Shown here: positions 39,431 to 58,288 of the stretch, in pieces
Layout: the number at the start of each line of letters is the position of its first letter
Numbering within the stretch: the first letter of the stretch is position 1
Source: Actinomycetes bacterium
GTDB taxonomy: Bacteria > Actinomycetota > Acidimicrobiia > Acidimicrobiales > Bog-793
Length of the DNA stretch: 64,000 bases
NCBI GenBank assembly: GCA_021818615.1
Contig: JAKATT010000136.1
Location: forward strand, 37,981 to 101,980
Direction: 5' to 3'
Notes under the pieces: model-generated
The model's database searches: none
Told to the model about the DNA's origin: nothing
The model's input: only the letters and a program-made list of their open reading frames with translations
Position numbers and translations under genes: made by a program

Positions 39431-40120
39431 TCATCGCCGACGCATGGTGACCAGCCAGAGTCGGCGGGGTAAGCCGCCCTCCTCGAACGCGGTGACGCTG
39501 TCGAGATCGAAGCCATCGGCCAGGCGCTCGACGAGGGACCGATCGAAGAAGTGCACGACGAACCCGCCGTTCTCGTACAGGCTGTCGCCGAGCGAACGAC
39601 CGGCGCCGTAGTGGGCGTCGCCGGTGTGGCGCACGGTGTAGACGCACAGCCCCCCCGGGCGCAGTACCCGGCGTACCTCGGCGGCGAGGGCCGCGAGCTC
39701 GGGCGTGGTCAGCGCCATGTTGAAGAGCATGTGGGAGAAGCAGGCGTCGAGGGAGCTGTCGGCGAAGGGCAGCGGACGCCGCACGTCGTGCACCGCGGTG
39801 GCGAGACGCCCGGCGAGCTCGGGTCCCGCTGCGGCCGCCAGGCCGGCCACGGCAGTCGCGGCGTAGTCGAGGGCGTGGACCTCGAGACCTGCACGCAGCA
39901 GCTCCAGGGTGTCACGGCCCTGGCCGGCTCCGAGCTCGAGCACCTCCACGAGGCCTTCGCCGGCAAAGCGGCCCGCTGCGTAGCGACCGGCCTCGCTCGG
40001 CTCGGACCCGTACATCTCGGGGTTGGCACCGAGGGTCGTCTCCCACTGACGCCGCTGGTCGGCGATCAGGGTTCCGGTGGTCACGGTTCCGGTGGTCACC
40101 GGGACGTCGGTCCCGTTCAT
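39431..40120 (-). CDS. Class I SAM-dependent methyltransferase
   Basis: VLELGAGQGRDTLELL (motif I), LRPGGLCVYTV. Start at ATG 40120 (MNGTD). Contains the VTTGT x2 repeat. Confidence 0.8.
   Translation of the reverse strand: MNGTDVPVTTGTVTTGTLIADQRRQWETTLGANPEMYGSEPSEAGRYAAGRFAGEGLVEVLELGAGQGRDTLELLRAGLEVHALDYAATAVAGLAAAAGPELAGRLATAVHDVRRPLPFADSSLDACFSHMLFNMALTTPELAALAAEVRRVLRPGGLCVYTVRHTGDAHYGAGRSLGDSLYENGGFVVHFFDRSLVERLADGFDLDSVTAFEEGGLPRRLWLVTMRRR
40070..40099. repeat. 15-bp tandem duplication GGTTCCGGTGGTCAC x2
   Basis: Read directly. Encodes VTTGTVTTGT at the methyltransferase N-terminus. Confidence 0.85.
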
Positions 40121-40152
40121 CGGGTCGTTCGCTCGGGCTCGCAGGTCGCGCT

Positions 40153-40470
40153 TCACCTGCCCCTCGGCGGCATCCACCTGTCGGGCTCCGTGCGCAAGAG
40201 GCCATCGACGCGCTGCTCGAACTCGGCGATGTCGATCTCGCCGCGTGCGTAACGTTCCCGCAGCGTCATCATCGGGTCCTCGCGGGCCGGCGGCTCGGCC
40301 AGCTCCCCGGGAGCTCCCGGAGCGTGACCGAACCCGCAGCCGGGCCCCCACCCTCCAAGAGCACTACGAGATCGCTGGGACATCAGCCTCAGGCTCATGA
40401 AGAGAGCCACGGCGATCATCGCCGGGATCACGAGGAGCATCGGCCACGGGAAGCTTCCCCACATCATCAT
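40153..40470 (-). CDS. Small membrane protein with C-terminal SHOCT domain
   Basis: AGGAGGAAT immediately upstream of ATGATGATG. TM FPWPMLLVIPAMIAVALFMSL; SHOCT-like LRERYARGEIDIAEFEQRVDGL. Confidence 0.65.
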   Translation of the reverse strand: MMMWGSFPWPMLLVIPAMIAVALFMSLRLMSQRSRSALGGWGPGCGFGHAPGAPGELAEPPAREDPMMTLRERYARGEIDIAEFEQRVDGLLRTEPDRWMPPRGR

Positions 40471-40585
40471 GATTCCTCCTGAAGCTCGACCGGCACCCCT
40501 GTGCACGTTCTCGCCAAGGTTGTCCGCGCCAGGCAACCGGATCCGGCACCGCGAGGCTCGCAGTGGTAGAGCCGGGTGGAGCTCA

Positions 40586-40918
40586 TCAGGATCTCCCGTC
40601 GACGAGCAGTGCCCGGACCGCCTCGATGGCAGGGCGCAGCGCGTCGCTGGTGGCGCAGTAGTAGACGTAGGTGCCGCGGCGCTCGGCCCGCACGACTCCC
40701 CGGTCGCGCAGCACGCGCAGGTGGTGGGAGACGGCTGGCTGGCGAAGTCCCGCCGCCGTCGCGATCGCGCCGACGGAGACACACGCCGTGTCGAGGATCG
40801 AGAGGATCCGAAGCCGCGTCGGATCGCCGAGCGCCTGAAGCAGCTCGGCGAGCTGAGCTGCCTCGCCTCGGTCGATCGTCGGAGCTGCGTCCAGAAGCGT
40901 CGTCACGCTGTATATCAA
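40586..40918 (-). CDS. ArsR/SmtB-family transcriptional regulator
   Basis: LLQALGDPTRLRILSIL..VGAIATAAGLRQPAVSHHLRVLRDRGVVRAERRGTYVYY. TTG start lies inside an AT-rich repeat. Confidence 0.85.
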   Translation of the reverse strand: MIYSVTTLLDAAPTIDRGEAAQLAELLQALGDPTRLRILSILDTACVSVGAIATAAGLRQPAVSHHLRVLRDRGVVRAERRGTYVYYCATSDALRPAIEAVRALLVDGRS

Positions 40919-40940
40919 CAGATCTATATCTACAGATATT
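40911..40940 (-). promoter_or_regulatory. AT-rich repeat/palindrome overlapping the arsR start (candidate operator)
   Basis: Gene-sense: ATATCTGTAGATAT (palindrome), then AGATCTGTTGATATA. ATCTGTWGATAT occurs twice. Conspicuous in GC-rich DNA. Confidence 0.35.
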
Positions 40941-40978
40941 CCGAGCTCTCGAGCCCGACGACGGACGGAGGGATCCCT

Positions 40979-41674
40979 TCACCTCGTCGCCCGGGTGGTC
41001 TGCTCGTCGCGGCCGCCCCGCCACCGAGTGCCCGCCGCGACGGCGACGAAGCCCGCTTCGGATAGGGCTCCCTCTCGTACCTCCTCGTCCACCGGGGCGT
41101 CCATCGGGGCCTGGCGAAGGGTGGAGCGGGCGGCCACGACCTCGAATCCGGCACGTCCGAGCAGTCCGAGATGGTCGGCGAGTGTGAGGAAGTGGGCGCC
41201 CTGGTAAAAGGGGTGGCCGGCGCGCCGCTTCTCCTCATAGGCCTGACCCCAGGCGCTGTCACCGGGCACGAGCCCGACGACGAGGCTGCCGCCCGGGCGA
41301 AGCACCCGGCGGACCTCGTCGAGGAGCCCGGCCGGGTCGTCCGCGAAGCAGAGCGTGACGACGAGGATCACCACGTTGAACCCGTGATCGGCGAATGGCA
41401 GCTGCTCGCCGGCTCCCTGGACGACGCGCACGCCCCTCCTCGCGGCCAGGTCGAGCGGTGCGCGGGCGGGGTCGAGACCTACCTCGATTCCGAGCGCCGT
41501 GGCGAAGCGCCCGGAGCCGACCCCGACCTCGAGACGTGGTGGCCCCGTCCCAGACAACAGCGGGCGCAGGCACCTGAGCTCGAGGTCGAACAGCTTGCGC
41601 CCTGACGCCATGTCATACCAGGCGTCGTAGCGTGCGGCGAGGTCTTCGAAGGCCGATCCCACCGGCACGGCCAC
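40979..41674 (-). CDS. Class I SAM-dependent methyltransferase (type 11-like)
   Basis: RLEVGVGSGRFATAL (motif I), LPFADHGFNVVILVVTLCF, LRPGGSLVVG. Confidence 0.8.
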   Translation of the reverse strand: MAVPVGSAFEDLAARYDAWYDMASGRKLFDLELRCLRPLLSGTGPPRLEVGVGSGRFATALGIEVGLDPARAPLDLAARRGVRVVQGAGEQLPFADHGFNVVILVVTLCFADDPAGLLDEVRRVLRPGGSLVVGLVPGDSAWGQAYEEKRRAGHPFYQGAHFLTLADHLGLLGRAGFEVVAARSTLRQAPMDAPVDEEVREGALSEAGFVAVAAGTRWRGGRDEQTTRATR

Positions 41675-41678: not shown

Positions 41679-41906
41679 TCAGGGCCGGTCGACCCTCAGG
41701 TCCCGCAGCTTGCCCGTGACCTCCGCCAGCTCCTGTTCGAGGTCGCGCTGGCGCTCCTCGAGGATGCTCCGCCGGCTCGCTGTCTCCTCCTCGCGATCCC
41801 GGTGCGGGCCACCGCCGTGGCCGCCGCAGCAACCCGAGCCTCCGCAGCAGCCGTGCCCCCGGCCCCTCGGGCCCCGCTCGACGTCGTCTCGTTCCATCGT
41901 TCTCAT
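41679..41906 (-). CDS. Small Cys/Gly/His-rich coiled-coil protein (DUF5320-like)
   Basis: GPRGRGHGCCGGSGCCGGHGGGPH followed by coiled coil LEERQRDLEQELAEVTGKLRDL. 2-nt gap after padR, 4-nt gap before the methyltransferase. Family call from memory. Confidence 0.5.
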   Translation of the reverse strand: MRTMERDDVERGPRGRGHGCCGGSGCCGGHGGGPHRDREEETASRRSILEERQRDLEQELAEVTGKLRDLRVDRP

Positions 41907-41908: not shown

Positions 41909-42328
41909 TCAGTCCTTTCCGTGGTAGGTGTTGTCGATCTTCTCGGCGACCGCCCCGTAGCGCTCGAGCACTCGTGCGATCCGCGCCTGGCCGGACCGGA
42001 GCGACCCCGCCCAGGCGCCGAGCAACGCGGCACCCTCACCAGTGAGCTCGTAGATCCGCTTGAGCGGACCGGGGGCGTCTTCGCTCCACGAGGAGGCGAC
42101 GAGGCCTTCCCCTTCGAGCGAGCGCAGCAGCCGGTAGAGGTTGCCGAAGTCGACCCTGCCCTCTTCGAGGAGCTCCTCGAGCGCGTCAGCGAGCTCGTAG
42201 CCGTGGCTCGGGCCCTCCGCCAACAGCAGCAGCACGGCCGGCTCGGCAAAACGCTCGACCCGGGCCCGGACCTCGAAGCTGCCCGGGCCGACCCGGCAGC
42301 GGCAGCGTGGTTGACGATCGACCTTCAT
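41909..42328 (-). CDS. PadR-family transcriptional regulator
   Basis: RFAEPAVLLLLAEGPSHGYELADAL..FGNLYRLLRSLEGEGLV..KRIYELTGEG. N-terminal RCRCR. Start at 42328 or 42355. Confidence 0.8.
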   Translation of the reverse strand: MKVDRQPRCRCRVGPGSFEVRARVERFAEPAVLLLLAEGPSHGYELADALEELLEEGRVDFGNLYRLLRSLEGEGLVASSWSEDAPGPLKRIYELTGEGAALLGAWAGSLRSGQARIARVLERYGAVAEKIDNTYHGKD

Positions 42329-42405
42329 CGCTTTTCGAGTATAGGTGAACGACATAGGTGTCGTACATCCCCCGGGACCCCTCCAGGTCTTGTCCTGCGC
42401 CTGTG

Positions 42406-42429
42406 GATCTGTTATCCATAGATATATGG
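42406..42429 (+). promoter_or_regulatory. AT-rich motif overlapping the start of the ArsR-rhodanese gene (candidate operator)
   Basis: GATCTGTTATCCATAGATATATGG. Shares GATCTGTT and GATATA with the site at 40911-40940. ATG 42426 lies inside it, with no SD upstream. Confidence 0.35.
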
Positions 42430-43187
42430 AGTATCAGAACAGCGAGCAGGGGCGGGCCGATCTCTACGGGCAGCTGGCCCGGATCGGCAAGGTGGTCATG
42501 CACCCCAAGCGCATCGAACTGCTGGACCTGCTCTGCCAGGGCGAGCGCAGCGTTGACGCGCTCGCCGCGGCGAGCAGTCTCAAGCTCACGACGGCTTCGG
42601 CACATCTGCAGGTGATGCGCCAGGCCCGGCTCGTCGAGACCCGCCGGGAGGGGACTCGGGTCTACTACCGGGCGGCCGGCGAGGAGGTCTGCCGTCTCGT
42701 CACCGCGCTCAGCGACCTGGCCCGTGCCCGTCTCGCCGAGGTGGACCAGATCCTCCGGGCGATCGGCACCGACGCGCACGGCGCCGAGCGGGTGACCCGA
42801 GCCGAGCTGCTCGAGCGGGTCCTCGTGGGGGACGTCGTCGTCCTCGACGTGCGACCCCCCGAGGAGTACGCGGCCGGCCACATCGCCGGTGCGATCTCGC
42901 TCCCATTGGAGCAACTCGAGGCGCGGCTCGACGAGCTCGACCCCACGATCGAGGTTGTCGCCTACTGCCGGGGCCCGCTCTGCCTCCTCGCCCCTGAGGC
43001 CGTCGGCACCCTTCGCGAGCGTGGTCGCCGGGCACGCTGCCTCGAGGACGGCATGCCCGAATGGCGCCGTGCGGGCCTGCCCGTCGCCGCCGGGGTCGGG
43101 GTCGCCGCCGGGGTCGGGGTCGCCGCCGGGGTCGGGGTCGGGGTCGGGGCGGCGACGGCGCCCGATGGCACGCGGCGGTCGCGATGA
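42426..43187 (+). CDS. ArsR-family HTH fused to a rhodanese domain
   Basis: HPKRIELLDLLCQGERSVDALA..ASAHLQVMRQARLVETRREGTRVYY, then rhodanese VVVLDVRPPEEYAAGHIAGAISLP..VVAYCRGPLC (active-site Cys loop). Repeat-encoded (GVGVAA)n tail. Confidence 0.85.
   Translation: MEYQNSEQGRADLYGQLARIGKVVMHPKRIELLDLLCQGERSVDALAAASSLKLTTASAHLQVMRQARLVETRREGTRVYYRAAGEEVCRLVTALSDLARARLAEVDQILRAIGTDAHGAERVTRAELLERVLVGDVVVLDVRPPEEYAAGHIAGAISLPLEQLEARLDELDPTIEVVAYCRGPLCLLAPEAVGTLRERGRRARCLEDGMPEWRRAGLPVAAGVGVAAGVGVAAGVGVGVGAATAPDGTRRSR
43083..43149. repeat. 18-bp tandem repeat GTCGCCGCCGGGGTCGGG x3 plus GTCGGG partial units
   Basis: Read directly. Encodes AAGVGV repeats at the C-terminus of the ArsR-rhodanese protein, ending about 35 nt before the overlapping cysteine desulfurase start. 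Confidence 0.9.
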
Positions 43188-44338
43188 CCGCGGAGCGCGC
43201 TCCCGGCCTGATCTATCTCGACCACAACGCGACCACGCCACTGGCGCCGCAGGTGCTCGAGGCAATGCTGCCCTACCTGCGAGAGCACTTCGGCAACCCC
43301 TCCAGTGACCACGAGCCGGGTCGGCGCGCCCGTCGGGCCGTCGAAGAGAGCCGGGAGCTGGTTGCGTCGCTCATCGGTGCTGCACCCGGAGAGATCGTGT
43401 TCACCTCCGGTGGCACCGAGTCCAACAATCTCGCCATCCGCGGCTGTGCAGCATCCGCACCGCCGGGACGTCGCCGCATCGTCACCTCCCAGGTCGAGCA
43501 CCCGGCCACGAGCGGCCCTTGCGGGTTGCTGGAGGCACAGGGGTGGACGGTCACCCGCGTGCCGGTCACCCATACTGGGACGCTCGACCCCGTCACGGTC
43601 GACGCCGCGCTCGGCACCGACGTGGCGCTCTTGACGGTGATGCTCGCCCAGAACGAGACCGGGGCCGTCATGGCGATCCCCGCTCTGGCACAGGCGGCCC
43701 GGGGGTCAGGCAGCGTCGTGCATACCGACTCCGCCCAGGCCATCGGAAAGATCGCCGTCTCGGTCGAGATTCTCGGGGTCGACCTCCTCTCCATCGCCGG
43801 CCACAAGTGCTATGGCCCCAAAGGTGTCGGCGCGCTGTATGTCCGGCGCGGGACAACGCTCGAGCCCGTGATCCGCGGGGCCGGCCAGGAACGGGGACTA
43901 CGCCCCGGCACGGAGAACGTCGCCGGCATCGTCGGCCTCGGAGCCGCCTGTGAGCTCGCGCAGTCCCGCCTGACCGATGAGGGAGAGCGGATGCGGACGC
44001 TTCGCGACATGTTGTGGGGAGCCCTCTCGGAGCGCATCGCTGGCCTCGTCCGACACACCCCGATGGACACCAGCCTGCCCAATACCTTGACCGTGTCCTT
44101 CCCCGGCGCCCTGGGCAGGGACGTGCTGGGCCACGCCGAAGGCCTCGCCGCATCGACCGGGTCGGCCTGCCACGCTGGCGAGGAGACCCCCTCTGCCACG
44201 TTGCTCGCCATGGGCGTGCCACCCGACGTCGCACGTGGTGCCGTGCGGCTCTCGCTCGGCCGCGCCAATAGCCCGACCGAGATCGCCGCCGCCGTCGAGA
44301 TGCTCGTGAAAGCCCACCGGGAGGCAACCGGACCGTGA
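43184..44338 (+). CDS. Cysteine desulfurase (class V aminotransferase, NifS/IscS-like)
   Basis: IYLDHNATTP, FTSGGTESNNLAIRG, HTDSAQAIGK, SIAGHKCYGPKGVGALY (PLP Lys), STGSACHAG (catalytic Cys loop). ATGA overlap with the upstream gene. Confidence 0.9.
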   Translation: MTAERAPGLIYLDHNATTPLAPQVLEAMLPYLREHFGNPSSDHEPGRRARRAVEESRELVASLIGAAPGEIVFTSGGTESNNLAIRGCAASAPPGRRRIVTSQVEHPATSGPCGLLEAQGWTVTRVPVTHTGTLDPVTVDAALGTDVALLTVMLAQNETGAVMAIPALAQAARGSGSVVHTDSAQAIGKIAVSVEILGVDLLSIAGHKCYGPKGVGALYVRRGTTLEPVIRGAGQERGLRPGTENVAGIVGLGAACELAQSRLTDEGERMRTLRDMLWGALSERIAGLVRHTPMDTSLPNTLTVSFPGALGRDVLGHAEGLAASTGSACHAGEETPSATLLAMGVPPDVARGAVRLSLGRANSPTEIAAAVEMLVKAHREATGP

Positions 44339-44630: not shown

Positions 44631-44981
44631 GTGAAGATCCTCGTCATCTTGAACGACCCACCGTATGGGACCGAGCGCTCCTACAACGGGCTTCGTCTCG
44701 CGGGCGCCCTCGCCAAGCGCGAGGGCGTCGAGCTGAAGGTGTTCTTGTTCGGCGACGCCGTCGGCTGCGCGCTCGCCAAGCATAAGCTGCCCGACGGCTA
44801 CTACCACCTCGATCGGATGGTGGCTTCCGTCGTTCGCCACGGCGGCCAGATCGGCTGCTGTGGCACGTGCATGGACGCCCGTGCCTTCACCGACGACAAG
44901 CTCGTCGAGGGCGCCCGGCGGTCGAGCCTCGAGGACGCGACCGAGTGGACGATCTGGGCCGACAAGGTCGTGAGCTTTTGA
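44631..44981 (+). CDS. DsrE/TusD-like sulfur-relay family protein
   Basis: AAGGAG 6 nt before GTG 44631. VKILVILNDPPYGTERSYNGLRLA..VFLFGDAV..IGCCGTCMDARA. Confidence 0.7.
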   Translation: MKILVILNDPPYGTERSYNGLRLAGALAKREGVELKVFLFGDAVGCALAKHKLPDGYYHLDRMVASVVRHGGQIGCCGTCMDARAFTDDKLVEGARRSSLEDATEWTIWADKVVSF

Positions 44982-45105: not shown

Positions 45106-46326
45106 GTGACCGGGCGCGTGCGGGTAGTCATCGTCGGAGGTTCCTTCGGCGGCCTCACCACCGCCTACGAGCTACGCCGCCAACTCTCACCCGAGCGGGC
45201 GGAGATCACCCTCGTCGCCAAGGAGGAGCGCTTCACCTTCGTCCCCTCGCTCACCTGGGTGGTGACGGGGTCGCGCACCCTCCCCCAGATCTCCTTCGGC
45301 CTCGCCAGGCCGCTCGCCGCCAAGCAGGTCCACTTCGCCCACGGGACCGTGACCGGCATCGACACCGAGGCCAAGGTGCTGACGACGACGAGCGGCGAGC
45401 ACCACTACGACTTCCTCGTCGTGGCCACCGGACACCGCAGCGCCAACGAGGCCGTCGAGGGCCTCGGGCCCTTCGACGGGCCGGGGCACTCGCCCATGTC
45501 CCCTCCCGAGGCCGAGGAGCTCGCCATAGCGGTTCGTGCTCTGCTCGCCGACCCCGGCCCGATCGTCGTCGGCGCAGCGCCCGGTGCGAGCTGCATCGGA
45601 CCGGCCTACGAGCTCGCCTTCGGGCTCGATCACCTGCTGCGCCGGCACAAGCTGCGCCACCTCGTGCCGATGAGCTTCGTCACCCCCGAGCCCTACCTGG
45701 GCCACATGGGCATGGGCGGCGCCGGCAAGATCCGCCAGCTCCTCGAAGGCGAGCTCGAGGAGCGCGACATCTCCTACCGAACCTCCGCGGCGGTGACCAA
45801 GATCACCGCCGACGCCGTGGATGTGGCGGGGGAGAGGTCGATCCCCTCGGTGCTCTCGATCGTCATCCCGCCACTCGCCGGGGTCGAGGCGGTCGCCACG
45901 AGCCCAGGGCTCGCCAACCCCAAGGGCTTCATCGCCGTCGACGCCCACTACCGTCACCGGAGTGCAGTGGGCGTCTACGCAGTCGGGGTGGCCGTTGCGC
46001 TTCCACCCGTCGGCGAGACCCCGGTGCCGGTCAACTTCCCGAAGACCGGCCACATGACCGAGCAGATGGCACAGATCGCCGCCTCCGACATCGCAACCCG
46101 GATAGCTGGAGCAAAGCCTCGCAGCTTCGAGCTGTCCGCCCGCTGCGTGCTCGACATGGGCAACAGCGGCGCCTACCTGGCGGTCGATCCCGTCCGCCCG
46201 CCGCGAGACAAGATCCCGACCGTGTCCGAGGGACCCCAGTGGCTGCTCGCCAAGCGGGTCTTCGAACAAGCCTACCTCTGGCACGCCAAGCACGGCCGGC
46301 GGATGCCGACCGCGATCGGGTGGTGA
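45106..46326 (+). CDS. Sulfide:quinone oxidoreductase-like FAD-dependent oxidoreductase
   Basis: VVIVGGSFGGLTTA (FAD); PGASCIGPAYELAF and ARCVLDMGNSGA (positions of the SQR redox cysteines); FPKTGHMTEQ. NDH-2 is less likely, as there is no second dinucleotide motif. Confidence 0.7.
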   Translation: MTGRVRVVIVGGSFGGLTTAYELRRQLSPERAEITLVAKEERFTFVPSLTWVVTGSRTLPQISFGLARPLAAKQVHFAHGTVTGIDTEAKVLTTTSGEHHYDFLVVATGHRSANEAVEGLGPFDGPGHSPMSPPEAEELAIAVRALLADPGPIVVGAAPGASCIGPAYELAFGLDHLLRRHKLRHLVPMSFVTPEPYLGHMGMGGAGKIRQLLEGELEERDISYRTSAAVTKITADAVDVAGERSIPSVLSIVIPPLAGVEAVATSPGLANPKGFIAVDAHYRHRSAVGVYAVGVAVALPPVGETPVPVNFPKTGHMTEQMAQIAASDIATRIAGAKPRSFELSARCVLDMGNSGAYLAVDPVRPPRDKIPTVSEGPQWLLAKRVFEQAYLWHAKHGRRMPTAIGW

Positions 46327-46329: not shown

Positions 46330-46818
46330 GTGCGCCGACGCCGAGGGCCTGAGCCCCTCGTCCTCGGCGCGGTTCTCTCGGTGCTGTCAGGACAAGGGAC
46401 CTCGGTGCGGGTCCTGTGCTTCACCCACGCCGAAGCCTCGACGCTCGATGGAGCGAGCCGGCCCCTCGGTGCAGTCCGGGCCGAGGAGCTCCGAGCTGCG
46501 GCCGCTGTGCTCGGGGTCGACGAGGTCACCTTGCTGTCGTACCCAGATGGCGATCTCGGCGAGATCCTGAAGGGTGCAGTGCCGCTACGAGTTGCTCGCG
46601 CCGCTCCACGCCTGGGCGAGCGGGAGAAGCTCGTTCACGCGGCGGCGCGAAGGCGAGCGATCGAGCTGCTGCATCTGCCTCGCGGCGGCCAACCGTCGCC
46701 GGCACGCCGGGGACCGGTCGAGCGCGACACCGACGAGCACACGCTGGAGCGGTCCACCCGGGGCTGTGTGACTGTGGCTGCTGGAACGGCGAGGACTGCT
46801 GGATGCCATGTTCGCTGA
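46330..46818 (+). pseudogene. PIG-L/LmbE-family deacetylase-like fragment (degenerate)
   Basis: VRVLCFTHAEASTL..LGAVRAEELRAAAAVLGVDEVTLLSYPDGDL resembles the family core. The N-terminal HPDDE motif and the C-terminal half are not recognisable. Confidence 0.3.
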
Positions 46819-50524: not shown

Positions 50525-53500
50525 TCAAATCCTCTCCACGGCAACTCGCGTCTCGAAGTAGGCCTGGCCGCCGGTGACCGCGTCCATGCACCCGACCGTC
50601 CACCCGTCGGCACCGGCGAGGGAGGTGTCGAGCCGGATGACCGAGTTGAGCCGCACCGCAGTCCCCCGGGTGGCGTCGCCGCCGACCGCACTGCCGTCGA
50701 TCGTCGTGCTCGCAGCCCCGGATTGCCAGTGCCCGTAGCCGTGGGGGAAGGCGACGACGCCCGGTCGCACGCCGGGGAGCAGCCGCAGGCGGCCGACGGG
50801 TGCCCGCTCGCGGGGCAGCGTCGCGGAGTAGACACGCACGAGGTCTCCCGCTTCGAACCCGCGGCGGGCGGCGTCGCTCGGGCACATGTCGATGAACCCC
50901 TCCGGCATGAGCTCGGTGAGCCAGGGATCGACGATGCACTGGCTGTGGCTGAGGATCGTCGACTTGTGGGTGCTGAGCACGAAGGGGAAGCGCGAGGCGG
51001 GATCGAGCTGCTCGAAGCTCCTCCCTGCCAGGTCGGTCATCGGCGCGAAACGGGCGGTGCCGCAGAAGCGCTCGCCGCTGAGCGAGTTGCGGGTCGTCGC
51101 CACGTCGGGGTTGTAGAGCTGGCAGGGGAGCCCGCCCTGTCCGTAGCGGTAGGTCATCCACGCCGGGCCGGTGGCCGGGTTCGCTGGAAGCCTTACCGCC
51201 GACAGGAACGACGCCCGCACCTCGGCAGGGCTGATCTGGTTGGTGGCACGGGCGTAGTGCTCCAAGCCGGTGTCGAGCACGAGGTTCTGGACGATCCTGC
51301 CCAGGCGGGAACTGCTGCCCGTGCTCGGTAGGTACGCGACCTCGTAGTCCTCGAAGCGCCCGCCACGCGCCAGCACGTAGGCGACCTTCGGCCACTCGGA
51401 GCTTCTGATCGCGCGGCGGCGGGTGGCAATCAGCGGCGCGACTGCGGCAAGCTCGGCCCTGCTCGCGTTTGGGACGGGTCCCAGGTTGTGCAGAGCTCCG
51501 TCACGCCAGGCCTGGAACGTCGGGTCGTAGGCGACGTTGGCCACCATCTTCAGGTAGTAGTCCTCACGGGTGTCGAGGGAACCCCCCTCGGCGAAGGCGT
51601 GCTCGCCGAAGCCCGGCAGGCCGAGCGCTTTGGCGACGTCGATGAGGAACTGCTCCATGCACATCGGGTAGCCGCTGGCTGTGTGCCCGGTGAGGGGCTC
51701 GATCACGGGCTGGCGGACGCCCTGGGCCTTGGTCGGGACGACGGGCCAGACGCCCGGGAACTCCCACGACTCGAGGAAGGTCGTGTCCGGCACGACGTAG
51801 TCTGCGAAGACGGCAGTCTCCGACATCACGATGTCGGTGGCGATGAAAAGCGGCACCCTGTCGAGGTCGGTGATGAGCCGCTGGAAGGGGAGGGCGGGGT
51901 CGTCGCAGCCGCCGATCGCTGGCGCGCTCCAGGCCGGGTTGGCGGCATGTGACAGGACGATCTTCGCCCCGTACGGGTAGCCCTCGCGGATCCCGGCGAA
52001 CATCTCCGGCCACTGCCCGCCGCCGAAAGGGAACCAGGGCCGCCGCGCCGGGTAGGGATTGACGCCGGCCTTCACTTTGGCGGCGTACTCGCCGGAGGTC
52101 TCGTAAGCGACGCCGCTACGCGAGATCGGGACGCCGGCAGGGACGTTGGCGGGCTGGCCCGGCCAGGACCCGAGCGCGTACGGAGCCCCGGAGCTCCCTC
52201 CGGCGTAGTCCGCCGTCCCGCCGCCGACCACGTAACCGCCCATCCAATCGAGGCTGCCGACGAGGAAGTTGAGCGTCATGACAGCCCGGCAGGCGTAGAA
52301 GCCGTTCGTGTGCATGGCGGGACCGCGCCCGTAGTCGGCCACCGCCTGGCGGCCGTAGCTGGTGAACTCGGCCGCCAAAGTGGCGATCAGCTCCGGGGGG
52401 ACCCCCGCCTGGGTGGCGTACTGCTCGAGGCTGAGCGCGCGGGCCTCGCCGTAGAGGAGCTGGAACCCGGTAGCGCACCTGACGCCGTTAACCACGGTTG
52501 TGTTGGTGTCGAGCGCGCCGGCCGGCCAGAGCTCACCGGATCGTGCGCCGGTGGCGGGCACGGGCACCCTCGTCGAAGGGTCGATCACGACGCCCGCCTG
52601 CCCGGAGCCGGAGGCAAGCCCCATGGAGCTTCCACCGCCACCTCCCATCTTCTCTGGGGAGAGCCCCGCCTCGGCGGGCGTGAGGAACGATCCGTAGCGG
52701 GGATGCTGCGGGTCGGAGACGACGAGCCAGGTGGCATTGGTGAAGCTCGGCATGCCCGCCTTCGCCGCCGCCTCCTGGCTCGGGCACGACAGGTAGGCGG
52801 CGTCGTAGGCGGCCTGCTCGATGATCGAGCGGATCATCCCCATGGCGAGGGCGCCGTCGCCGCCCGGGCGGACGTAGACGCAGCGATCGGCGTACATCGA
52901 CGAGTTGTTCGCCCGGACGTCGACGACTACGAAACGTAGGGATCTGGAAGCAGACGCCTCGGCGACCTTGCGCCCGAGCGCCTGCATCGGGAACCCTCCC
53001 GTCGTAGGGTTCAGCCCGAAGAAGATCACGTACTGGGCGTTGGCGAGATCCGGCTTGAGCGGGTCCGTCATCCCGTCGAGCGAGAGCATCGTCGCCTTCA
53101 TGCGGGGGAGGTCGCAGACGGCGTCGGCCGCTTCGAGGTTGACCGTCCCGAACGAGGACGCGAAACGTGAGAGGAGATCCGTCTGGCCGTTCTCGGCCAT
53201 TCCGTAGAAGACGACGAGGCCGTTCGTCTCCGGGCCGAGACCTGGGTCGGCCGGGTCGATCGGCCGGTAGCGCCCGCGACCATGGTCGTAGAGACCGGCG
53301 AAGCCCTCGACCTGACGGCGCTCTTCCCCCGCCACCGCCGAGAAGAGCGTCCCGCCGGCGACGACCTCGTCGACGAGCTGCTCCCAAGAGACGGCCTCGA
53401 AACGCCCCGAGCCCCGCGGCCCGCTCCGCTTGAGGGGAAGGGTCAGCCGGTAGGGGTCGTAGACGGTCTGGCGGCCCGCTTGCCCCCGGTTGCAGAGCGA

Positions 53501-55081
53501 GTGCGGAGTCGCCCACACCGCCGCCGAGGCGGCAGGCGTGGCATACCGGGCGTGCGGCTCGGTGCTGGCGGGGTGGTAGGGATTCCCGTCCAACTTCTGA
53601 AGGACGCCCCCGAAGACCTCGGCGGCGAGGCCACAGTCGCTCCCGCACTGCTTGCAGACGCTGTAGATGGTGCTCACGCCGGTGAGGGTCGCCGGGCGGT
53701 CCGGGTAGACGAAGGTGCCCCTGCGATGGAAGAGGTCGCCCACCCATGGCGCCGCACCCCAGCTGGCGGCGGCAACGCCGCCGCTCACCATCCCGGTACG
53801 GGCGAGGAAAGCCCTGCGGCCAAAACGTGCCCGGCCGTCCGCCGCCGGCTCGAGGCGATGAGATGACGGAGCGGAAGGAGTGCCCACCGGTGCAGGCAAG
53901 AGCGTGCCGGCAGGCTCCGTGTCCCGAGCAGCCGCCTCGCGCCAGGGCAACAGCCAGGAGAAGAAGAGGAACAGCAAGACGGCGATGGCGAAGACCCCGA
54001 GCACCGTCTGGACGGAGTCGAAGCCGGTGAGCGGCACCGACATGTGGACGATGCTCGAGGAGACCTTCGACTCCATTTGCCCGCCGAGCACGACGTTGTA
54101 GCGCATCGCGTAGACCCCGACCACGACGCAGAGGGCGATGGCGGCTCCCCCGAGCACGGAACGCCTGACCGGCCGGACGAGGAATAGGAGCAGCGGCAGC
54201 ACGATCCCCACTCCGAGCTGGAGGCCGAGGTAGCTGAAGGCGTGCGGTCCGTGCAGGAAGACCGAGCTCACGCCCTCGCTCACCGGTCCCTGCGTGTAGG
54301 CGGAGACGCCACTCGTGACGAGGTCGACGACGTCCAAGAAGCCGTCGAGGGCGAGGAAGCCCACCAGCCAGAAAAGGAGCGTCCGGGTCAGCTCACGGTC
54401 GCACTGATCGCGGTAGAAGCGTCCCGTGAGCCCGTAGACGAGATACATGAAGGCCATCCCGGAGACGACCGCCGAGACGATGAAGAGCACGGGCATGAGC
54501 GCCGTCGACCAGATCGCCCGTGCCTTCACCGCCCCGAAGACGAAACCGATGTAGCCGTGGAACAAGAAGGCGAGCAGGATGCCGATCGCCGAGAGGCCGA
54601 CGAGCACCTTGGCGTCTCGCCGCTCGGCCCGCTCGCTCAGGTCGCTGCTCCCGAGAGCGAGCAGCGAGGAGAGCCGCGCCCGCCAACCGGTCCCGCCGGC
54701 GCGCATGACGTTCTTGCGCCGAAAGGCGAAGTAGGTCTCGACGGTCATGAGCACGACGTAGCTCAGCCAGATCAAGGTGAAATCGCCGAGCGGCGACCAA
54801 GGGATGTGCGGGCGGGTGAAGAGCTCGAAGGCGTTGACGGGTTGGCGGGCGTCGGCGAGCACGGTCACGGGGGCGGCGAGAAGGAGGGAGAAGCTGACGA
54901 TGAGGGCGAGAGGGGCGAGCCTTGCGAGGCGATGCACCTTGAAAACGTGGCTGAGCGAGGCGACAACGAACGAGCCGGCGACGAGGCCGGAGATGAACGG
55001 GTAGGTGGCGATGAGCAGTCCCCAGTAGACGTTCTCGAGGGCACCTCCTCGAAGGCCCGGGTCGAGCGCGAGCATTCTCAT
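50525..55081 (-). CDS. Fused NrfD-type membrane anchor + internal Tat motif + bis-MGD molybdopterin oxidoreductase catalytic subunit (TtrC-TtrA-like fusion), 1518 aa
   Basis: ATG 55081 (GGAGGGG upstream). Residues 1-380: nine hydrophobic segments of NrfD/PsrC type. Residues 421-447: GRRAFLARTGMVSGGVAAASWGAAPW. Then FS0 motif CKQCGSDC..C, GNPYHP, ALAMGMIRSI, and ~1090 residues to ..AVERI. No stop anywhere in the frame. Confidence 0.8.
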   Translation of the reverse strand: MRMLALDPGLRGGALENVYWGLLIATYPFISGLVAGSFVVASLSHVFKVHRLARLAPLALIVSFSLLLAAPVTVLADARQPVNAFELFTRPHIPWSPLGDFTLIWLSYVVLMTVETYFAFRRKNVMRAGGTGWRARLSSLLALGSSDLSERAERRDAKVLVGLSAIGILLAFLFHGYIGFVFGAVKARAIWSTALMPVLFIVSAVVSGMAFMYLVYGLTGRFYRDQCDRELTRTLLFWLVGFLALDGFLDVVDLVTSGVSAYTQGPVSEGVSSVFLHGPHAFSYLGLQLGVGIVLPLLLFLVRPVRRSVLGGAAIALCVVVGVYAMRYNVVLGGQMESKVSSSIVHMSVPLTGFDSVQTVLGVFAIAVLLFLFFSWLLPWREAAARDTEPAGTLLPAPVGTPSAPSSHRLEPAADGRARFGRRAFLARTGMVSGGVAAASWGAAPWVGDLFHRRGTFVYPDRPATLTGVSTIYSVCKQCGSDCGLAAEVFGGVLQKLDGNPYHPASTEPHARYATPAASAAVWATPHSLCNRGQAGRQTVYDPYRLTLPLKRSGPRGSGRFEAVSWEQLVDEVVAGGTLFSAVAGEERRQVEGFAGLYDHGRGRYRPIDPADPGLGPETNGLVVFYGMAENGQTDLLSRFASSFGTVNLEAADAVCDLPRMKATMLSLDGMTDPLKPDLANAQYVIFFGLNPTTGGFPMQALGRKVAEASASRSLRFVVVDVRANNSSMYADRCVYVRPGGDGALAMGMIRSIIEQAAYDAAYLSCPSQEAAAKAGMPSFTNATWLVVSDPQHPRYGSFLTPAEAGLSPEKMGGGGGSSMGLASGSGQAGVVIDPSTRVPVPATGARSGELWPAGALDTNTTVVNGVRCATGFQLLYGEARALSLEQYATQAGVPPELIATLAAEFTSYGRQAVADYGRGPAMHTNGFYACRAVMTLNFLVGSLDWMGGYVVGGGTADYAGGSSGAPYALGSWPGQPANVPAGVPISRSGVAYETSGEYAAKVKAGVNPYPARRPWFPFGGGQWPEMFAGIREGYPYGAKIVLSHAANPAWSAPAIGGCDDPALPFQRLITDLDRVPLFIATDIVMSETAVFADYVVPDTTFLESWEFPGVWPVVPTKAQGVRQPVIEPLTGHTASGYPMCMEQFLIDVAKALGLPGFGEHAFAEGGSLDTREDYYLKMVANVAYDPTFQAWRDGALHNLGPVPNASRAELAAVAPLIATRRRAIRSSEWPKVAYVLARGGRFEDYEVAYLPSTGSSSRLGRIVQNLVLDTGLEHYARATNQISPAEVRASFLSAVRLPANPATGPAWMTYRYGQGGLPCQLYNPDVATTRNSLSGERFCGTARFAPMTDLAGRSFEQLDPASRFPFVLSTHKSTILSHSQCIVDPWLTELMPEGFIDMCPSDAARRGFEAGDLVRVYSATLPRERAPVGRLRLLPGVRPGVVAFPHGYGHWQSGAASTTIDGSAVGGDATRGTAVRLNSVIRLDTSLAGADGWTVGCMDAVTGGQAYFETRVAVERI

Positions 55082-55086: not shown

Positions 55087-56157
55087 TCACTCCCCTCCGA
55101 GGGGTGTCTGCAGGACCATCTGGCCGCTGAGCTCGGCGTACTGATCGGTGTTGGTGCCGACGGCGTAGGGGTAAACGGTGTCGAAGGCGGTGGCGGCGCT
55201 CACGAGCTCGCCGTTCAGGTTGATGTAGAAGATCTGCGGATCCGTCCCCTCCTCGGGAAGGAGCGTGATCGTCGGGTACTGGGCAAGGAGCTGGGAGGCG
55301 GCGCTCTGCGGGTCGTTGAGGTCGCCGAAGACCCGCGCCCTTCCGACGCACGAGGTGACGCAGGCAGGGAGGAGTCCCCGGTCGAGGCGTTGCACGCAGA
55401 AAGTGCACTTGTCCGCCGTCTCCTGCACGCTGTGGAAATATCGGGCGTCGTACGGGCAGGCCTGGATGCAGATCCCACAGCCGATGCACTTCGTGTAGTC
55501 GACAAGGACCGGGCCATCCCCGCGCTTGAAGGTGGCCTGCACCGGGCAAACGATGACGCAGGGCGGGTTGTCGCAGTGGTTGCAAAGTCGGGGGAGCGCC
55601 CACCGCTTCACCGTCGGCGTGAAGCGCCCGTCTTCGGTGACGATGGAGCCCGACGGATCCCGGACCATCGTGCCGAGCTCGACCACCTCCACCCAGGTGC
55701 GGTAGTTGCCCGGCGGCACGTTGTTCTCGCTCTTGCAGGCGACCACGCAGGCCTGGCAACCGATGCAGCGGCGCAGGTCGATGACCATCCCCCAGTGGTG
55801 CGATGCGGCGGACTCGTCGGGGAAGGCCTCGTAGTAGGCGGGCTGGTCGCGCGAGTTGAGGATGGTGGGCACCCAGGCGCCCGGCCGGCTCCAACCGTCT
55901 GGCCGGGCGTTCAGCTCGTCGACCGTCCAGCTCGCCCAGCGGGGCTTGAGCGCGAGCACCTTGGAGAGGGGAAGGCGGCCCTTCAGGCGGGTCGGAAGGA
56001 GCGCTGCGGCGGTCCGTCCGGCCCGCAAGCGGGTGACGACGCCCCCGGACGCGGCAGCGACCGTCATCCCGAGCGCAGCTGTGAGAGCCTGGCGGCGCGT
56101 GAACGCGACCCGCTCGCCGGTTGCTCGGGAGTCGTCCGGTCTCGATCTCGCCCCCAT
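55087..56157 (-). CDS. Tat-targeted 4Fe-4S ferredoxin subunit (TtrB/PsrB/NrfC-like)
   Basis: Tat signal FTRRQALTAALGMTVAAASGG. Cys clusters: CIGCQACVVACKSEN, CNHCDNPPCVIVCP, CIGCGICIQACPYDA, CTFCVQR..ACVTSC. About 90-residue insert between the signal and the first cluster. Confidence 0.9.
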   Translation of the reverse strand: MGARSRPDDSRATGERVAFTRRQALTAALGMTVAAASGGVVTRLRAGRTAAALLPTRLKGRLPLSKVLALKPRWASWTVDELNARPDGWSRPGAWVPTILNSRDQPAYYEAFPDESAASHHWGMVIDLRRCIGCQACVVACKSENNVPPGNYRTWVEVVELGTMVRDPSGSIVTEDGRFTPTVKRWALPRLCNHCDNPPCVIVCPVQATFKRGDGPVLVDYTKCIGCGICIQACPYDARYFHSVQETADKCTFCVQRLDRGLLPACVTSCVGRARVFGDLNDPQSAASQLLAQYPTITLLPEEGTDPQIFYINLNGELVSAATAFDTVYPYAVGTNTDQYAELSGQMVLQTPLGGE

Positions 56158-56238
56158 CGGCTCTCATGCTCCGCCGTCCCGGCAGTCCCCACATCGGCGA
56201 AGCCGCTTACATCGGCCGGTAATCCCGCCTAGGCGATC

Positions 56239-56250
56239 TCGCGTACGCGA
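56239..56250. promoter_or_regulatory. Perfect 12-bp palindrome TCGCGTACGCGA in the divergent ttrB-like / response-regulator intergenic region
   Basis: Read directly. The 140-bp divergent promoter region makes it a candidate dimeric regulator site. Confidence 0.3.
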
Positions 56251-56297
56251 CAGTGCGACGCCGTCGGCCCGGATGGCGATGCACAATGTGAGCAGCC

Positions 56298-56927
56298 ATG
56301 TCGCCCCGCCCGATCCGCGTCATTGTCGTCGACGACCACCAGGTCGTGCGGGAGGGGACACGGCGGATCCTCGAGGCGGCGGGTTTCGAAGTTGTCGCCG
56401 AGGCTGCCACGGCCGCCGAGGCCGTCACGGCGGTCGCCGCCGGTTCCCCTGACGTCGTCCTCGCCGACGTCAGGCTGCCGGGCATGACCGGCATCGATCT
56501 CACCGCCCTCTTGAAGGACAGGCATCCGGCGATCAAGGTGCTGATCCTCTCGTCGTACGCGAACCCGGCTTACGCTCGAGCGGCGCTCAAGGCGGGTGCT
56601 GCCGGCTATCTGGTCAAGACCGCCTCCGACGACGAGCTCGTGGGCGCCGTAAGGTCGGCGTCGCTCGGTACGGGGGTGCTCGACTCGGGCGTCTTGTCGG
56701 AGCTCATCTCGGAGACGGGCGGCGACTTCCAGATGCTCACGGGCCGGGAGCGCGACGTGGTCGAGCTCGTCGTCGCAGGGCTCCCGAACAAGGGGATCGC
56801 CGCCCGCCTCGAGGTGAGCCCGCGGACGGTCGATGCCCACCTTGCGCACCTGTTCACCAAGCTCTCCGTCTCGTCACGGGCCGAGCTCGTGGCGTGGGCA
56901 GCCCGCCATGGGATGTTGGGGGAGTGA
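56298..56927 (+). CDS. NarL/LuxR-family response regulator
   Basis: IRVIVVDDHQVVREG..DVVLADVRLPGMTG receiver domain. LuxR HTH: LTGRERDVVELVVAGLPNKGIAARLEVSPRTVDAHLAHLFTKL. Confidence 0.9.
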   Translation: MSPRPIRVIVVDDHQVVREGTRRILEAAGFEVVAEAATAAEAVTAVAAGSPDVVLADVRLPGMTGIDLTALLKDRHPAIKVLILSSYANPAYARAALKAGAAGYLVKTASDDELVGAVRSASLGTGVLDSGVLSELISETGGDFQMLTGRERDVVELVVAGLPNKGIAARLEVSPRTVDAHLAHLFTKLSVSSRAELVAWAARHGMLGE

Positions 56928-58288
56928 CCGGAAAGGTGCCCTCGGAGCGGCCCGGGAAGGGACTCGGCGCCTATCTGCCGCCGATCCACGACCGGCGCTT
57001 CTGGTTCACCCAAGGGCTGGTTCTCGTGGTGTCCATCGCCCATGCGGTCGTCCACATAGCGGTCGGCGGGTTGCCCGACGTGCTCGTCCTGATCCTGTAC
57101 ACGTTCCCGGTGATCTATGCGGCTCTCGAGTTCGGCTTCCGGGGCTCGGTCGCGACGACGGCGCTCATAGTGGTGCTCTCGCTGCCCTTCGTCATCCACG
57201 ACGCCCTGTCGGGCGTCGGCTCGGATTTCGTAGGGCACCTCGTCGAGCTCGCCATCCTCGTCGTGGTCGCTCCGGTCGTGGGGCGGGTGGTCGAATCGGA
57301 GCGAGCCGCCCGCCGGGCGCACGAGGTGGCGGAGATCCGGTACCGGGCGCTCTTCGAGGCGAGCGGCGTGCCAGCCCTTGTCCTCGACGAACAGGGATGT
57401 ATCCAGGAGGCCAACCCTGCCGCCGCATCGTTGCTGCAGGGCGAGCTGCAGGGCAGGCACCTGAGCCAGGTGCTCGGCATGGCGGCCGCGGACGCGATCC
57501 TCGGAGGCGACCCGCCGCAACGACTCGACGTCTCCTCGGGCCTGGCGTTGCGGCCCATAGTCTCGGCTGCCGTGGGCGAGGCGGGTGAGCGCCTCGCCCA
57601 GGTCCTGTTCCAGGACGTCACGGAGGAGACCGCCGGCAGCCGGAGGACTCGGGCCTTCGCCCTTGCCGTCCTCGTCGCCCAAGAAGACGAGCGCCGGCGT
57701 ATCGCTCAGGAGCTCCACGACGAAGCGTTACAGCTCGTGGTCGAGCTCCGTCGCCGCGTCGAGCGAGTCGTGCGGTCCAGCCCACCCGACTGCGCCGGAG
57801 GCGAAGAGCTGCTCGCGGCGCGTTCGCTCGCCGACGCCGTGATCGAGGAGCTCAGGACCGTCGCCGTCCGTCTCCGCCCGCCCGACCTCGCCGATCTCGG
57901 TCTCACAGCCTCACTCGAGCGGCTCGTTGCCGAGGCCCGCCGCCGGGGCACTCCGGCCGAGATCGAGGTCGAAGGCCGCGAGCCCGCCCTCCCGCCGGAC
58001 TTCGCTCTCTCGCTCTACCGGGTAGCCCAGGAGGCGCTCACGAATGCTGAGCACCACGCCCGGGCCCAGCACGTCGGCTTGCGGCTCGACTTCTCGGACT
58101 CGAGCGCTGTCCTTGTCGTCGAGGACGACGGGGTCGGGTTCGTGGTGGGCGATGCCGCGGCGAGCGAGGCGAACGCCCATCTGGGACTGCTCGGGATGCG
58201 CGAGCGGTTGCAGCTCGTTGGCGGGACCCTCGAGATCACCTCTGCGGTCGGCGAGGGAACGACCGTTGCCGCGGCCGTGCGCCTCTAG
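56894..58288 (+). CDS. Membrane sensor histidine kinase (HisKA_3/NarX-type) with PAS-like domain
   Basis: Four N-terminal hydrophobic segments; PAS-like YRALFEASGVPALVLDEQGCIQEANPAA; H-box EDERRRIAQELHDEALQ; HATPase VEDDGVGF..GLLGMRERL. GTG 56924 (GTGA with the regulator stop) is an alternative start. Confidence 0.85.
   Translation: MGSPPWDVGGVTGKVPSERPGKGLGAYLPPIHDRRFWFTQGLVLVVSIAHAVVHIAVGGLPDVLVLILYTFPVIYAALEFGFRGSVATTALIVVLSLPFVIHDALSGVGSDFVGHLVELAILVVVAPVVGRVVESERAARRAHEVAEIRYRALFEASGVPALVLDEQGCIQEANPAAASLLQGELQGRHLSQVLGMAAADAILGGDPPQRLDVSSGLALRPIVSAAVGEAGERLAQVLFQDVTEETAGSRRTRAFALAVLVAQEDERRRIAQELHDEALQLVVELRRRVERVVRSSPPDCAGGEELLAARSLADAVIEELRTVAVRLRPPDLADLGLTASLERLVAEARRRGTPAEIEVEGREPALPPDFALSLYRVAQEALTNAEHHARAQHVGLRLDFSDSSAVLVVEDDGVGFVVGDAAASEANAHLGLLGMRERLQLVGGTLEITSAVGEGTTVAAAVRL

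Follow-up and report, generated by a model that had tools for sequence, protein, structure and literature searches.

A 64,000-nucleotide stretch of an actinomycete genome assembly (GCA_021818615.1, contig JAKATT010000136.1; hereafter the window, with positions counted from its first letter) carries three sets of genes for sulfur and redox chemistry within 19 kb: a PadR/Cys-rich protein/methyltransferase/ArsR/SHOCT/methyltransferase set (module 1), an ArsR-rhodanese/cysteine desulfurase/DsrE/sulfide:quinone oxidoreductase (SQR) set (module 2) and a Ttr-like respiratory reductase with its own two-component system (module 3). The question raised by this locus is whether the three belong together, as was claimed in the original prediction, in which they were taken for a portable chalcogen redox cassette with five dedicated regulators. 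As the G+C content of the window is about 69%, genes were called from third-position GC, and the calls were checked by Pfam and NCBIfam scans and by independent calls on two near-identical public contigs. All of the genes named in the prediction were confirmed in this way between the stop codon of a methyltransferase gene (MT2, 39431) and the stop codon of a histidine kinase gene (58288), an interval that also holds genes skipped in the earlier description (a truncated PIG-L gene, Nramp, DUF3105 and a TorD-like chaperone). The answer that we consider probable is that the 19 kb is put together, as a mosaic, from units with separate regulation and separate inheritance, lying in a flexible part of the genome of an uncultured, high-GC actinobacterium that is scarred by insertion sequences (IS).

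The company kept by the sulfide operon

Module 2 is a conserved operon. In the window it consists of genes for an ArsR-rhodanese fusion regulator (42444-43187, + strand; identified by Pfam, NCBIfam and a solved-structure match), an IscS/NifS-like cysteine desulfurase (43184-44338, +; Pfam Aminotran_5, E 2e-70), a DsrE-family sulfur-carrier protein (44631-44981, +; Pfam) and SQR (45106-46326, +; match to 3sz0). The ArsR-rhodanese protein was scanned against one genome per GTDB species, giving 80 loci (337 confirmed relatives), which were scored by tblastn with all window proteins and fell into 27 close and 53 distant ones. The close relatives (71-92% identity) all come from uncultured Actinomycetes or Acidimicrobiia. 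DsrE and/or SQR lie downstream in the same order in all 22 close loci that extend far enough, the DsrE orthologues being 67-88% identical, and the cysteine desulfurase is also present in 13 of the 27.

The habitual divergent partner of this operon is a unit of three genes on the − strand, encoding a PadR-family regulator (41909-42355; domain and family scans), a Cys-rich protein of 75 aa (41679-41906; recognized from its translation and a motif in its orthologues) and MT1, a class I S-adenosylmethionine (SAM) methyltransferase (40979-41674; Pfam, NCBIfam). All three lie divergently beside ArsR-rhodanese in L006, L008, L012, L014 and L019 (loci and contigs of relatives are referred to by L numbers) and MT1 alone adjoins it in L023, L024 and L028; MT1, with or without PadR and the peptide, is thus found there in 8 of the 19 close loci with enough upstream sequence. 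In L010 PadR is seen before the contig ends and in L007 a decayed remnant of the Cys-rich peptide gene is left. A metagenome scan with MT1 yielded two short contigs only and was replaced by a homologue search and context look-ups. This search from MT1 gave more than 386 homologues, whose contexts were sampled, and in every evaluable context at 64% identity or more (L092, L094 and L095) MT1 is adjacent to ArsR-rhodanese, it being noted that L094 is on the same contig as L012 and so is not an independent case, and that the L096 contig begins at MT1 and has no upstream side to evaluate.

Module 3 keeps other company. Orthologues of TtrA, TtrB, TtrC, TorD or Nramp were found within 10 kb of none of the 80 ArsR-rhodanese loci, about 12 of the close ones extending some 7 kb or more beyond SQR, and SQR, DsrE, ArsR-rhodanese and PadR/methyltransferase genes were found in none of the five contexts of Ttr relatives that were read (L003, L004/5, L086/7, L088/9 and a JGI contig). 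A regulon shared through the palindrome upstream of ArsR-rhodanese (42412-42433, described below) was considered and rejected, since the window holds only this one copy of it, and none lies in the Ttr block. The predicted co-occurrence therefore holds for the PadR/MT1 part of module 1 and module 2, which are linked beyond this genome, and fails at the orthologue level for module 3, so that the Ttr block is best read as a separate entity and not as part of one portable cassette.

A truncated PIG-L family gene (46330-46818, +; recognized by comparison with full-length orthologues) marks the seam at which module 2 meets the Nramp/Ttr block. Downstream of SQR in L094 and L095 the PIG-L gene is full-length, while its counterpart in the window keeps only residues 24-95/114 of orthologues of 227-242 aa. 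On the far side of the block, the closest Ttr relative (L003, 81% identity) shares the NarL-type two-component pair that flanks the operon (78% identity) and has, beyond the kinase gene, an IS1182 remnant homologous to a fragment in the window, where a further transposase gene is inserted between the two. Because of the truncated PIG-L gene, the pair and IS1182 remnant shared with L003 and the inserted IS, we regard the block as having been joined to module 2 by a rearrangement.

How far do these results tell against a single chalcogen redox system that moves as a cassette, in which the Ttr-like enzyme would respire oxidized products or re-oxidize SQR quinol under anoxia while the methyltransferases cap or volatilize chalcogenides? 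Physical linkage of the modules is seen in three or more near-identical assemblies, and coupling through the quinone pool, with SQR reducing quinone and the reductase re-oxidizing it, would be chemically plausible. Nevertheless, across the 80 + 5 loci there is no co-occurrence of orthologues, the Ttr block has a separate regulator and lacks the putative ArsR-rhodanese operator, a truncated gene sits at the module seam and no transposon ends bracket the set. The likely compartments also differ, as judged from the translations, SQR, DsrE and the desulfurase being without export signals and TtrA and TtrB having twin-arginine signals, and because of this a direct hand-over of sulfur would need a transporter that is not encoded in the region. 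We therefore think it unlikely that the three modules are one system, even with analogous three-part clusters, containing a non-orthologous molybdoenzyme, in Streptomyces sp. S.PB5 and Planomonospora alba to be counted in its favour.

These last clusters are among several points that weigh against the mosaic. Two cultured actinomycetes, representing 2 of the 53 distant loci, have a molybdoenzyme in the order ferredoxin subunit, membrane anchor, catalytic subunit (B-C-A) within the ArsR-rhodanese cluster. In P. alba (L083) the genes for ArsR-rhodanese, desulfurase, ferredoxin, NrfD and an 877-aa molybdoenzyme (best model PhsA) are co-directional and nearly contiguous, so that the molybdoenzyme appears to be in the same operon as ArsR-rhodanese, and in Streptomyces sp. 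S.PB5 (L035) an MduS-like methyltransferase, TusA, ArsR-rhodanese, a DsrE-SQR fusion and B-C-A all lie within 13 kb. The chance expectation for such proximity is below 1% per locus (a rough estimate, not computed), which makes two in 53 suggestive, and in view of these two clusters the adjacency of such modules is not always accidental and a functional association at the level of families may exist. Since the catalytic subunits of L035 and L083 are only 26-28% identical to that of the window, however, they are a case of analogy and not of orthology. It also has to be borne in mind that the close ArsR-rhodanese relatives are fragmentary contigs of metagenome-assembled genomes (MAGs) throughout, and that the search from the fused catalytic protein of the Ttr block returned only 23 proteins, owing to the word index on which it runs, and that five contexts of Ttr relatives were read. 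A bolder proposal can be built on the same clusters, in which ArsR-rhodanese would be a widespread actinobacterial hub for sulfane sulfur and chalcogens that repeatedly recruits SAM methyltransferases, at least three lineages would independently have recruited extracytoplasmic B-C-A molybdoenzymes and so coupled sulfide oxidation to oxyanion respiration through quinone, and the fusions of TtrC with TtrA would represent a new family of proteins for whose insertion the Sec and twin-arginine (Tat) pathways act together. Taken jointly these propositions are speculative and rather improbable, and we would put them forward only tentatively.

Regulators and proposed chemistry of the sulfide and methyltransferase units

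When upstream regions of the close relatives were aligned, 23 of 24 proved to share a palindrome, TTATCCATAGATCTATGGATAA, a short way ahead of the ArsR-rhodanese start. Among loci L006-L083 the form TCCATNGATNTATGGA is met approximately 30-50 nt upstream of the start, and with a relaxed pattern it is seen at the same position in many distant loci of Streptomyces, Kitasatospora, Lentzea and Amycolatopsis. The window copy, TTATCCATAGATATATGGAGTA (42412-42433, no strand assigned; 11 nt upstream of the ArsR-rhodanese start), is the only one there, the number to be expected by chance being 0. The conservation of this palindrome, from Acidimicrobiia-like MAGs to Streptomyces, marks it as a putative autoregulatory operator of great evolutionary depth.

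Within the regulator itself the rhodanese loop C175-R-G-x-x-C180 (CRGxxC) shows no variation in any of the 81 sequences compared. The cysteines of the ArsR domain, C31 and C83, are not conserved and are found in 31 and 30 of the 81 family members respectively. The best solved match of the DNA-binding domain is 2kko/3gw2 (E 9e-25), which we take to be the Mycobacterium bovis orthologue (Mb0332) of Rv0324, a protein with the same two-domain ArsR-rhodanese architecture. In a literature search Rv0324 was met only in network and transcriptome studies, in which no sensing mechanism or operator is described; the search gave no paper combining Rv0324 with rhodanese and nothing on ArsR-rhodanese/SQR/DsrE systems. 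An 18-nt tandem repeat in three copies (43081-43156) encodes a Gly/Val/Ala-rich C-terminal tail of the window protein, which we place as overlapping the start of the desulfurase gene. The ArsR-rhodanese protein on a contig of a second strain (L001) is only 97% identical, with four alignment gaps, and a difference in the copy number of this repeat would fit these figures.

The enzymes of the operon are familiar ones. SQR matches the Acidithiobacillus ferrooxidans enzyme (3sz0) over its full length (E 1e-75, residues 1-398) and keeps both redox cysteines, Cys160 and Cys356 in A. ferrooxidans numbering, in the contexts GASCIGPAYE and ARCVLDMG; at the position of the third type I cysteine, Cys128, there is a Met instead. 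The desulfurase scores 412 bits against the NifS model, below its cut-off of 531. From these parts a working model can be drawn in which SQR would oxidize H2S to sulfane sulfur and pass the electrons to the quinone pool, and DsrE, the rhodanese domain and the IscS-like desulfurase would carry or mobilize persulfide sulfur. ArsR-rhodanese would repress its own operon at the palindrome at 42412-42433, and we infer that release would come about when sulfane sulfur made by SQR loads the invariant CRGxxC loop. MT1 would methylate a thiol, persulfide or chalcogenide product.

The 75-aa protein, which is always found between PadR and MT1, carries GHGCCGGSGCCGGHG and ends in a charged, coiled-coil-like C-terminal tail; its motif CCGGSGCCG is invariant in seven orthologues (62-92% identity), and it could be a metal- or sulfur-binding peptide. 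The label 'DUF5320-like' that it had been given has to be dropped, as the protein has no match to DUF5320 in Pfam even at E values up to 5.

The remainder of module 1 is a distinct unit. It comprises ArsR1, an ArsR/SmtB-family regulator (40586-40918, −; domain and family scans), a small membrane protein with a C-terminal SHOCT domain (40171-40488, −; Pfam SHOCT 30.2 bits, cut-off 27) and MT2, a second class I SAM methyltransferase (39431-40177, −; Pfam, NCBIfam). An AT-rich element, GGAATATCTNNAGATNNAGAT (40919-40942, −), which is kept in L014, L012 and L096, lies immediately upstream of ArsR1 as its putative operator and promoter, and with this conserved candidate operator of its own the ArsR1-SHOCT-MT2 unit is to all appearances autonomous. 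Module 1 had been described as one operon: its genes are all present, and they form two regulatory units in place of one. The second of these is inverted and detached in L012, the arrangement MT1-ArsR-x-MT2 is found in L014 and L096, and MT2-like (MduS-like) genes of more than 50% identity adjoin ArsR-rhodanese in L035, L046 and L070 (Streptomyces, Pseudonocardiaceae). In our model it would be a unit with its own putative operator and a frequent fellow traveller of the sulfide operon. The half-site ATCnnTAGAT, which is common to the putative ArsR1 and ArsR-rhodanese operators, hints at possible cross-talk between the two regulators. In L012/L094 a glutaredoxin-like gene (L094 9782-10183) stands between ArsR and SHOCT; at that place the window (40488-40586) has only a 39-codon open reading frame (ORF), and the gene seems to have been lost here.

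Both methyltransferases are far below the cut-offs of the ArsM and TehB models. MT2 matches NCBIfam MduS (E 1e-67; 228 bits, cut-off 380) over model positions 5-214 of 338, so that it resembles the methyltransferase domain of the selenoprotein MduS, the C-terminal Sec-containing part of which is absent, and it also has weak TehB similarity. The solved-structure search gave no close structure for MT2 and the literature search nothing relevant on MduS. A more distant MT1 relative (59% identity), at 4142-7729 of L093, lies in a cluster with ArsR, an ACR3-type (SBF) gene and a low-molecular-weight phosphatase, a context that points tentatively to metalloids as possible substrates within the wider MT1 family.

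This bears on the possibility that the region serves resistance to Se, Te or As, with the methyltransferases and the Ttr/Srd-type reductase acting on metalloid oxyanions and the ArsR-type regulators sensing metalloids. The ars-like cluster around the 59%-identical MT1 relative in L093, the MduS methyltransferase domain as best match of MT2 with its weak TehB similarity, and the membership of SrdA and an arsenate reductase in the TtrA clade (see below) would all agree with it. Against them stand the MT1 orthologues of at least 64% identity, which are tied to the SQR operon and not to ars genes, the scores of MT1 and MT2 far below the ArsM and TehB cut-offs, and the window itself, in which there is no ArsB/ACR3, ArsC, TerD or TehA gene. 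On this balance metalloid resistance looks distinctly improbable.

The Ttr-like block and the borders of the region

The block consists, on the − strand, of genes for a TtrB-like four-cluster ferredoxin subunit (55087-56157; Pfam, NCBIfam), an in-frame TtrC-TtrA fusion of 1518 aa (50525-55081; NrfD and molybdopterin domains in one ORF), a TorD/NarJ-family molybdoenzyme chaperone (49863-50522; Pfam, NCBIfam), a DUF3105 protein (48983-49852; Pfam) and an Nramp-family metal transporter (47654-48979; domain and family scans). Divergently from ttrB run the genes for a NarL/LuxR-type response regulator (56298-56927, +) and, downstream of it, a PAS/HisKA_3 histidine kinase (56894-58288, +). The Pfam domains follow the B-C-A order (Fer4_11, NrfD, Molybdop_Fe4S4, Molybdopterin, Molydop_binding). 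Against the NCBIfam models TtrA reaches 590 bits (cut-off 1750), TtrB 247 (416) and TtrC 21.5 (314), all below the equivalog cut-offs, and the response regulator 87 bits against TtrR (cut-off 290); TtrA is nevertheless by far the best model for the catalytic part, PhsA giving 163 bits. The solved-structure search gave no close structure for TtrA. The selenate reductase SrdA and an arsenate reductase are further members of the TtrA clade, which has been called catalytically versatile (PMC10100899), and tetrathionate, selenate and arsenate-type oxyanions are all possible substrates. The product of the block would be an extracytoplasmic, quinol-oxidizing B-C-A(D) molybdoenzyme of the TtrA/SrdA/alternative-ArrA clade, governed by its own NarL-type two-component system; it would move independently of the sulfide operon and would have been set beside it by the rearrangement that truncated PIG-L.

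B-C-A-TorD is kept in all five of the Ttr relatives whose contexts were read, and their neighbours include copper-homeostasis genes (4 of 5), Nramp (2 of 5) and various two-component systems. Nramp adjoins the Ttr-like operon in three genomes and in three different orientations (window 47654-48979, L003 16208-17500, L088 3920-5197), a proximity that suggests that the reductase is functionally linked with the transport of metals. Genes of copper homeostasis (CsoR-type repressor, P-type ATPases) were seen in L004, L086, L088, L095, L096 and the P0011 contig; in related MAGs they turn up repeatedly in the vicinity of Ttr-like operons and also of MT1/ArsR-rhodanese operons, and these neighbourhoods may be shared 'stress islands' of the lineage. 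Recombination may have left a scar at 49837-49894, where a 30-nt tandem duplication covers the final codons of the TorD-like gene together with the start codon and ribosome-binding site of the DUF3105 gene. Homologues of the DUF3105 protein are encoded close to ArsR-rhodanese in L029 and L053, and not close to Ttr in L003.

A further feature of the block is the fused subunit. The ORF encodes about nine NrfD-type transmembrane helices, an internal twin-arginine signal and a molybdenum-bis(pyranopterin guanine dinucleotide) (Mo-bisPGD) catalytic domain. The internal signal, GRRAFLARTG at residues 420-429 (RR at 421-422), is followed by the hydrophobic region TGMVSGGVAAASWGAAPW and then HRR; TtrB has a separate twin-arginine signal at its N-terminus (TRRQALTAALG). 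From hydropathy and the positive-inside rule the nine helices are predicted to run from an N-terminus outside to a C-terminus inside, and because the end of the ninth helix is thereby cytoplasmic, the former TtrA signal would be exactly at the place of a Tat-dependent final helix. Salmonella TtrA keeps an uncleaved signal anchor (PMC5449189), and the modelled topology agrees with the criteria for dual Sec-Tat proteins in that paper.

The junction lies near 53800-53900, where the window has a gap of about 14 nt relative to L003 and L004. The segment missing here holds, in those relatives, the ribosome-binding site (GGAGG) and ATG of ttrA and, overlapping the latter, the TGA of ttrC; without it the ttrC and ttrA frames are joined. 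The same junction is present in a second assembly, 99.5% identical overall, for which reason an assembly error was rejected. The 22 relatives of the fused protein (50-81% identity) are all of about 1100 aa and unfused. An exhaustive profile-free search added five more fused proteins (31-35% identity), an internal RR motif being present in four of them, so the C-A fusion appears to be a recurrent architecture and, to judge from these comparisons, probably functional, the window instance being independent and recent; the literature search gave nothing on TtrC-TtrA fusions. It might be argued that the Ttr block is decaying cargo and much of the region non-functional, given a deletion that removes the ttrC stop together with the ribosome-binding site and start codon of ttrA, nearest relatives that are all unfused and several pseudogenes nearby. 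We find this very hard to credit, as the 1518-aa ORF has no further lesion, all the other operon genes are intact, the junction is unchanged in a second strain, the predicted topology fits dual insertion by Sec and Tat, and there are independent fused homologues with internal RR motifs.

The region is flexible, IS-rich DNA. A contig of GCA_028063625.1 is 100% identical to the window over 35248-56326 and an ENA contig is 99.5% identical over 35851-56326, and the three assemblies, at 99.5-100% identity, have three left-hand contexts: IS607/tRNA-Pro in the window and, in the other two, either IS66 with a tyrosine integrase or a PIN toxin gene. A fourth contig (91 kb) ends where these contexts part. 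The point at which the near-identical contigs leave the window sequence falls within the IS607 element or at its end.

To the left, positions 1-33.6 kb of the window are core genome (DAHP synthase, proB, RNase E/G, mreBC, folC-like, clpX, tig), and a tRNA-Pro (UGG) gene (33652-33726, +; ARAGORN, Rfam) closes this core part, after which the accessory, IS-rich stretch begins. The IS607-family element that follows (33768-35850, +; 209 bits, cut-off 110) has an intact TnpA serine recombinase (33768-34394) and a TnpB whose sequence is divided between two frames (34241-35065, 35014-35817); the Rfam Transposase-2 RNA motif at its 3' end (35748-35814) is probably the TnpB guide RNA. A short epimerase/ABM pair separates this element from an IS1634-family transposase pseudogene (37445-39300, +; six-frame reading), which is twice frameshifted and spread over two frames and whose rebuilt protein reaches 255 bits with the IS1634 model (cut-off 100). 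To the right are an apparently intact 559-aa transposase with helix-turn-helix and DDE domains and weak IS1380 similarity (58780-60459, +), which is the one inserted beside the kinase gene, and an N-terminal IS1182-family transposase fragment (60564-61139, +; model positions 2-175 of 488); from there to the window end the sequence resembles IS30 and IS21 remnants by eye.

IS debris is thus present on both sides, as had been claimed. A composite transposon was rejected, as no long direct or inverted repeats were found bracketing the region and the left and right flanking transposases share no similarity. A classical tRNA island was likewise rejected, no second copy of the tRNA-Pro 3' end being present elsewhere in the window. 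Since the join to the tRNA runs through the IS607 copy at which other assemblies diverge, its adjacency is not relied on here, and the link of the block to tRNA and core, passing as it does through a repeated IS, should not be over-read. Plasmid origin was rejected when a megablast of the 19 kb against PLSDB gave no match. The original prediction had also named a composition check, and this gave no island signal: the tetranucleotide correlation with core is 0.974 for the 19-kb region and 0.944 for the Ttr block, compared with 0.93-0.95 for 8-kb core pieces, and third-codon-position G+C (GC3) is only marginally higher (0.83-0.90 versus 0.81-0.87 in core), so a compositional island was rejected too and the region is in its composition indistinguishable from core. 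Of the island claim, mobility genes at the borders and a variable context stand, while atypical composition and defined ends do not.

Comparison with known systems

With these results a modular, testable picture replaces that of one cassette with five regulators. The reliable partners of the sulfide-detoxification operon are MT1 with PadR and the Cys-rich peptide, the Ttr-like block being incidental. MT1 and MT2 may be new sulfide or chalcogenide methylases. For the ArsR-rhodanese family, which includes M. tuberculosis Rv0324, the conserved putative operator and the invariant CRGxxC loop offer handles, and the natural TtrC-TtrA fusion could lengthen the short list of proteins assembled by both Sec and Tat.

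The sulfide operon is closest in design to the systems of the persulfide-responsive ArsR-family repressors (BigR-Blh, SqrR) and the analogous CstR-cst system, in which, as in the window, the repressor (a winged-helix protein of the ArsR type) is encoded directly upstream of genes for sulfide oxidation and sulfur transfer. It shares with BigR and SqrR a palindromic operator (a putative one in the window) overlapping the regulator's own promoter. It differs from them in its likely sensor, a fused C-terminal rhodanese with the invariant CRGxxC loop, the ArsR-domain cysteines being unconserved as described above; the regulator scores only 54 bits against the BigR model (cut-off 155). The operon is also without a persulfide dioxygenase, having DsrE and an IscS-like desulfurase instead, and unlike the BigR/SqrR systems it has a SAM methyltransferase as a regular neighbour. 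For its DNA-binding domain the best solved counterpart is a regulator of the Rv0324/Mb0332 type (2kko/3gw2).

The Ttr-like block shares with Salmonella TtrBCA/TtrRS and Bacillus SrdBCA the B-C-A order, the four-cluster ferredoxin, the NrfD anchor and the Mo-bisPGD subunit, as well as twin-arginine signals on A and B and an adjacent NarL-type two-component system. It is unlike them in that C and A are fused and that the operon has in addition a gene for a TorD-like chaperone and, in many cases, one for Nramp. For the fusion, the comparison set is the dual Sec-Tat proteins (the actinobacterial Rieske protein, the Sco3746 MsrQ-MsrP fusion and the NapH-type polyferredoxin; Tooke et al. 2017, PMC5449189), among the families of which a TtrC-TtrA fusion does not figure. 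As in these proteins, the polytopic Sec-type N-terminal part is predicted to end in the cytoplasm, and is followed by an internal RR, a weakly hydrophobic helix, trailing positive charges (HRR) and an extracytoplasmic cofactor-containing C-terminal part, and homologues occur as two polypeptides; unlike them, the fusion has an NrfD anchor of about nine helices and would export a Mo-bisPGD enzyme of about 1100 aa. Specialists will meet no large surprise here, as the parts of the locus are recognizable variants of known systems.

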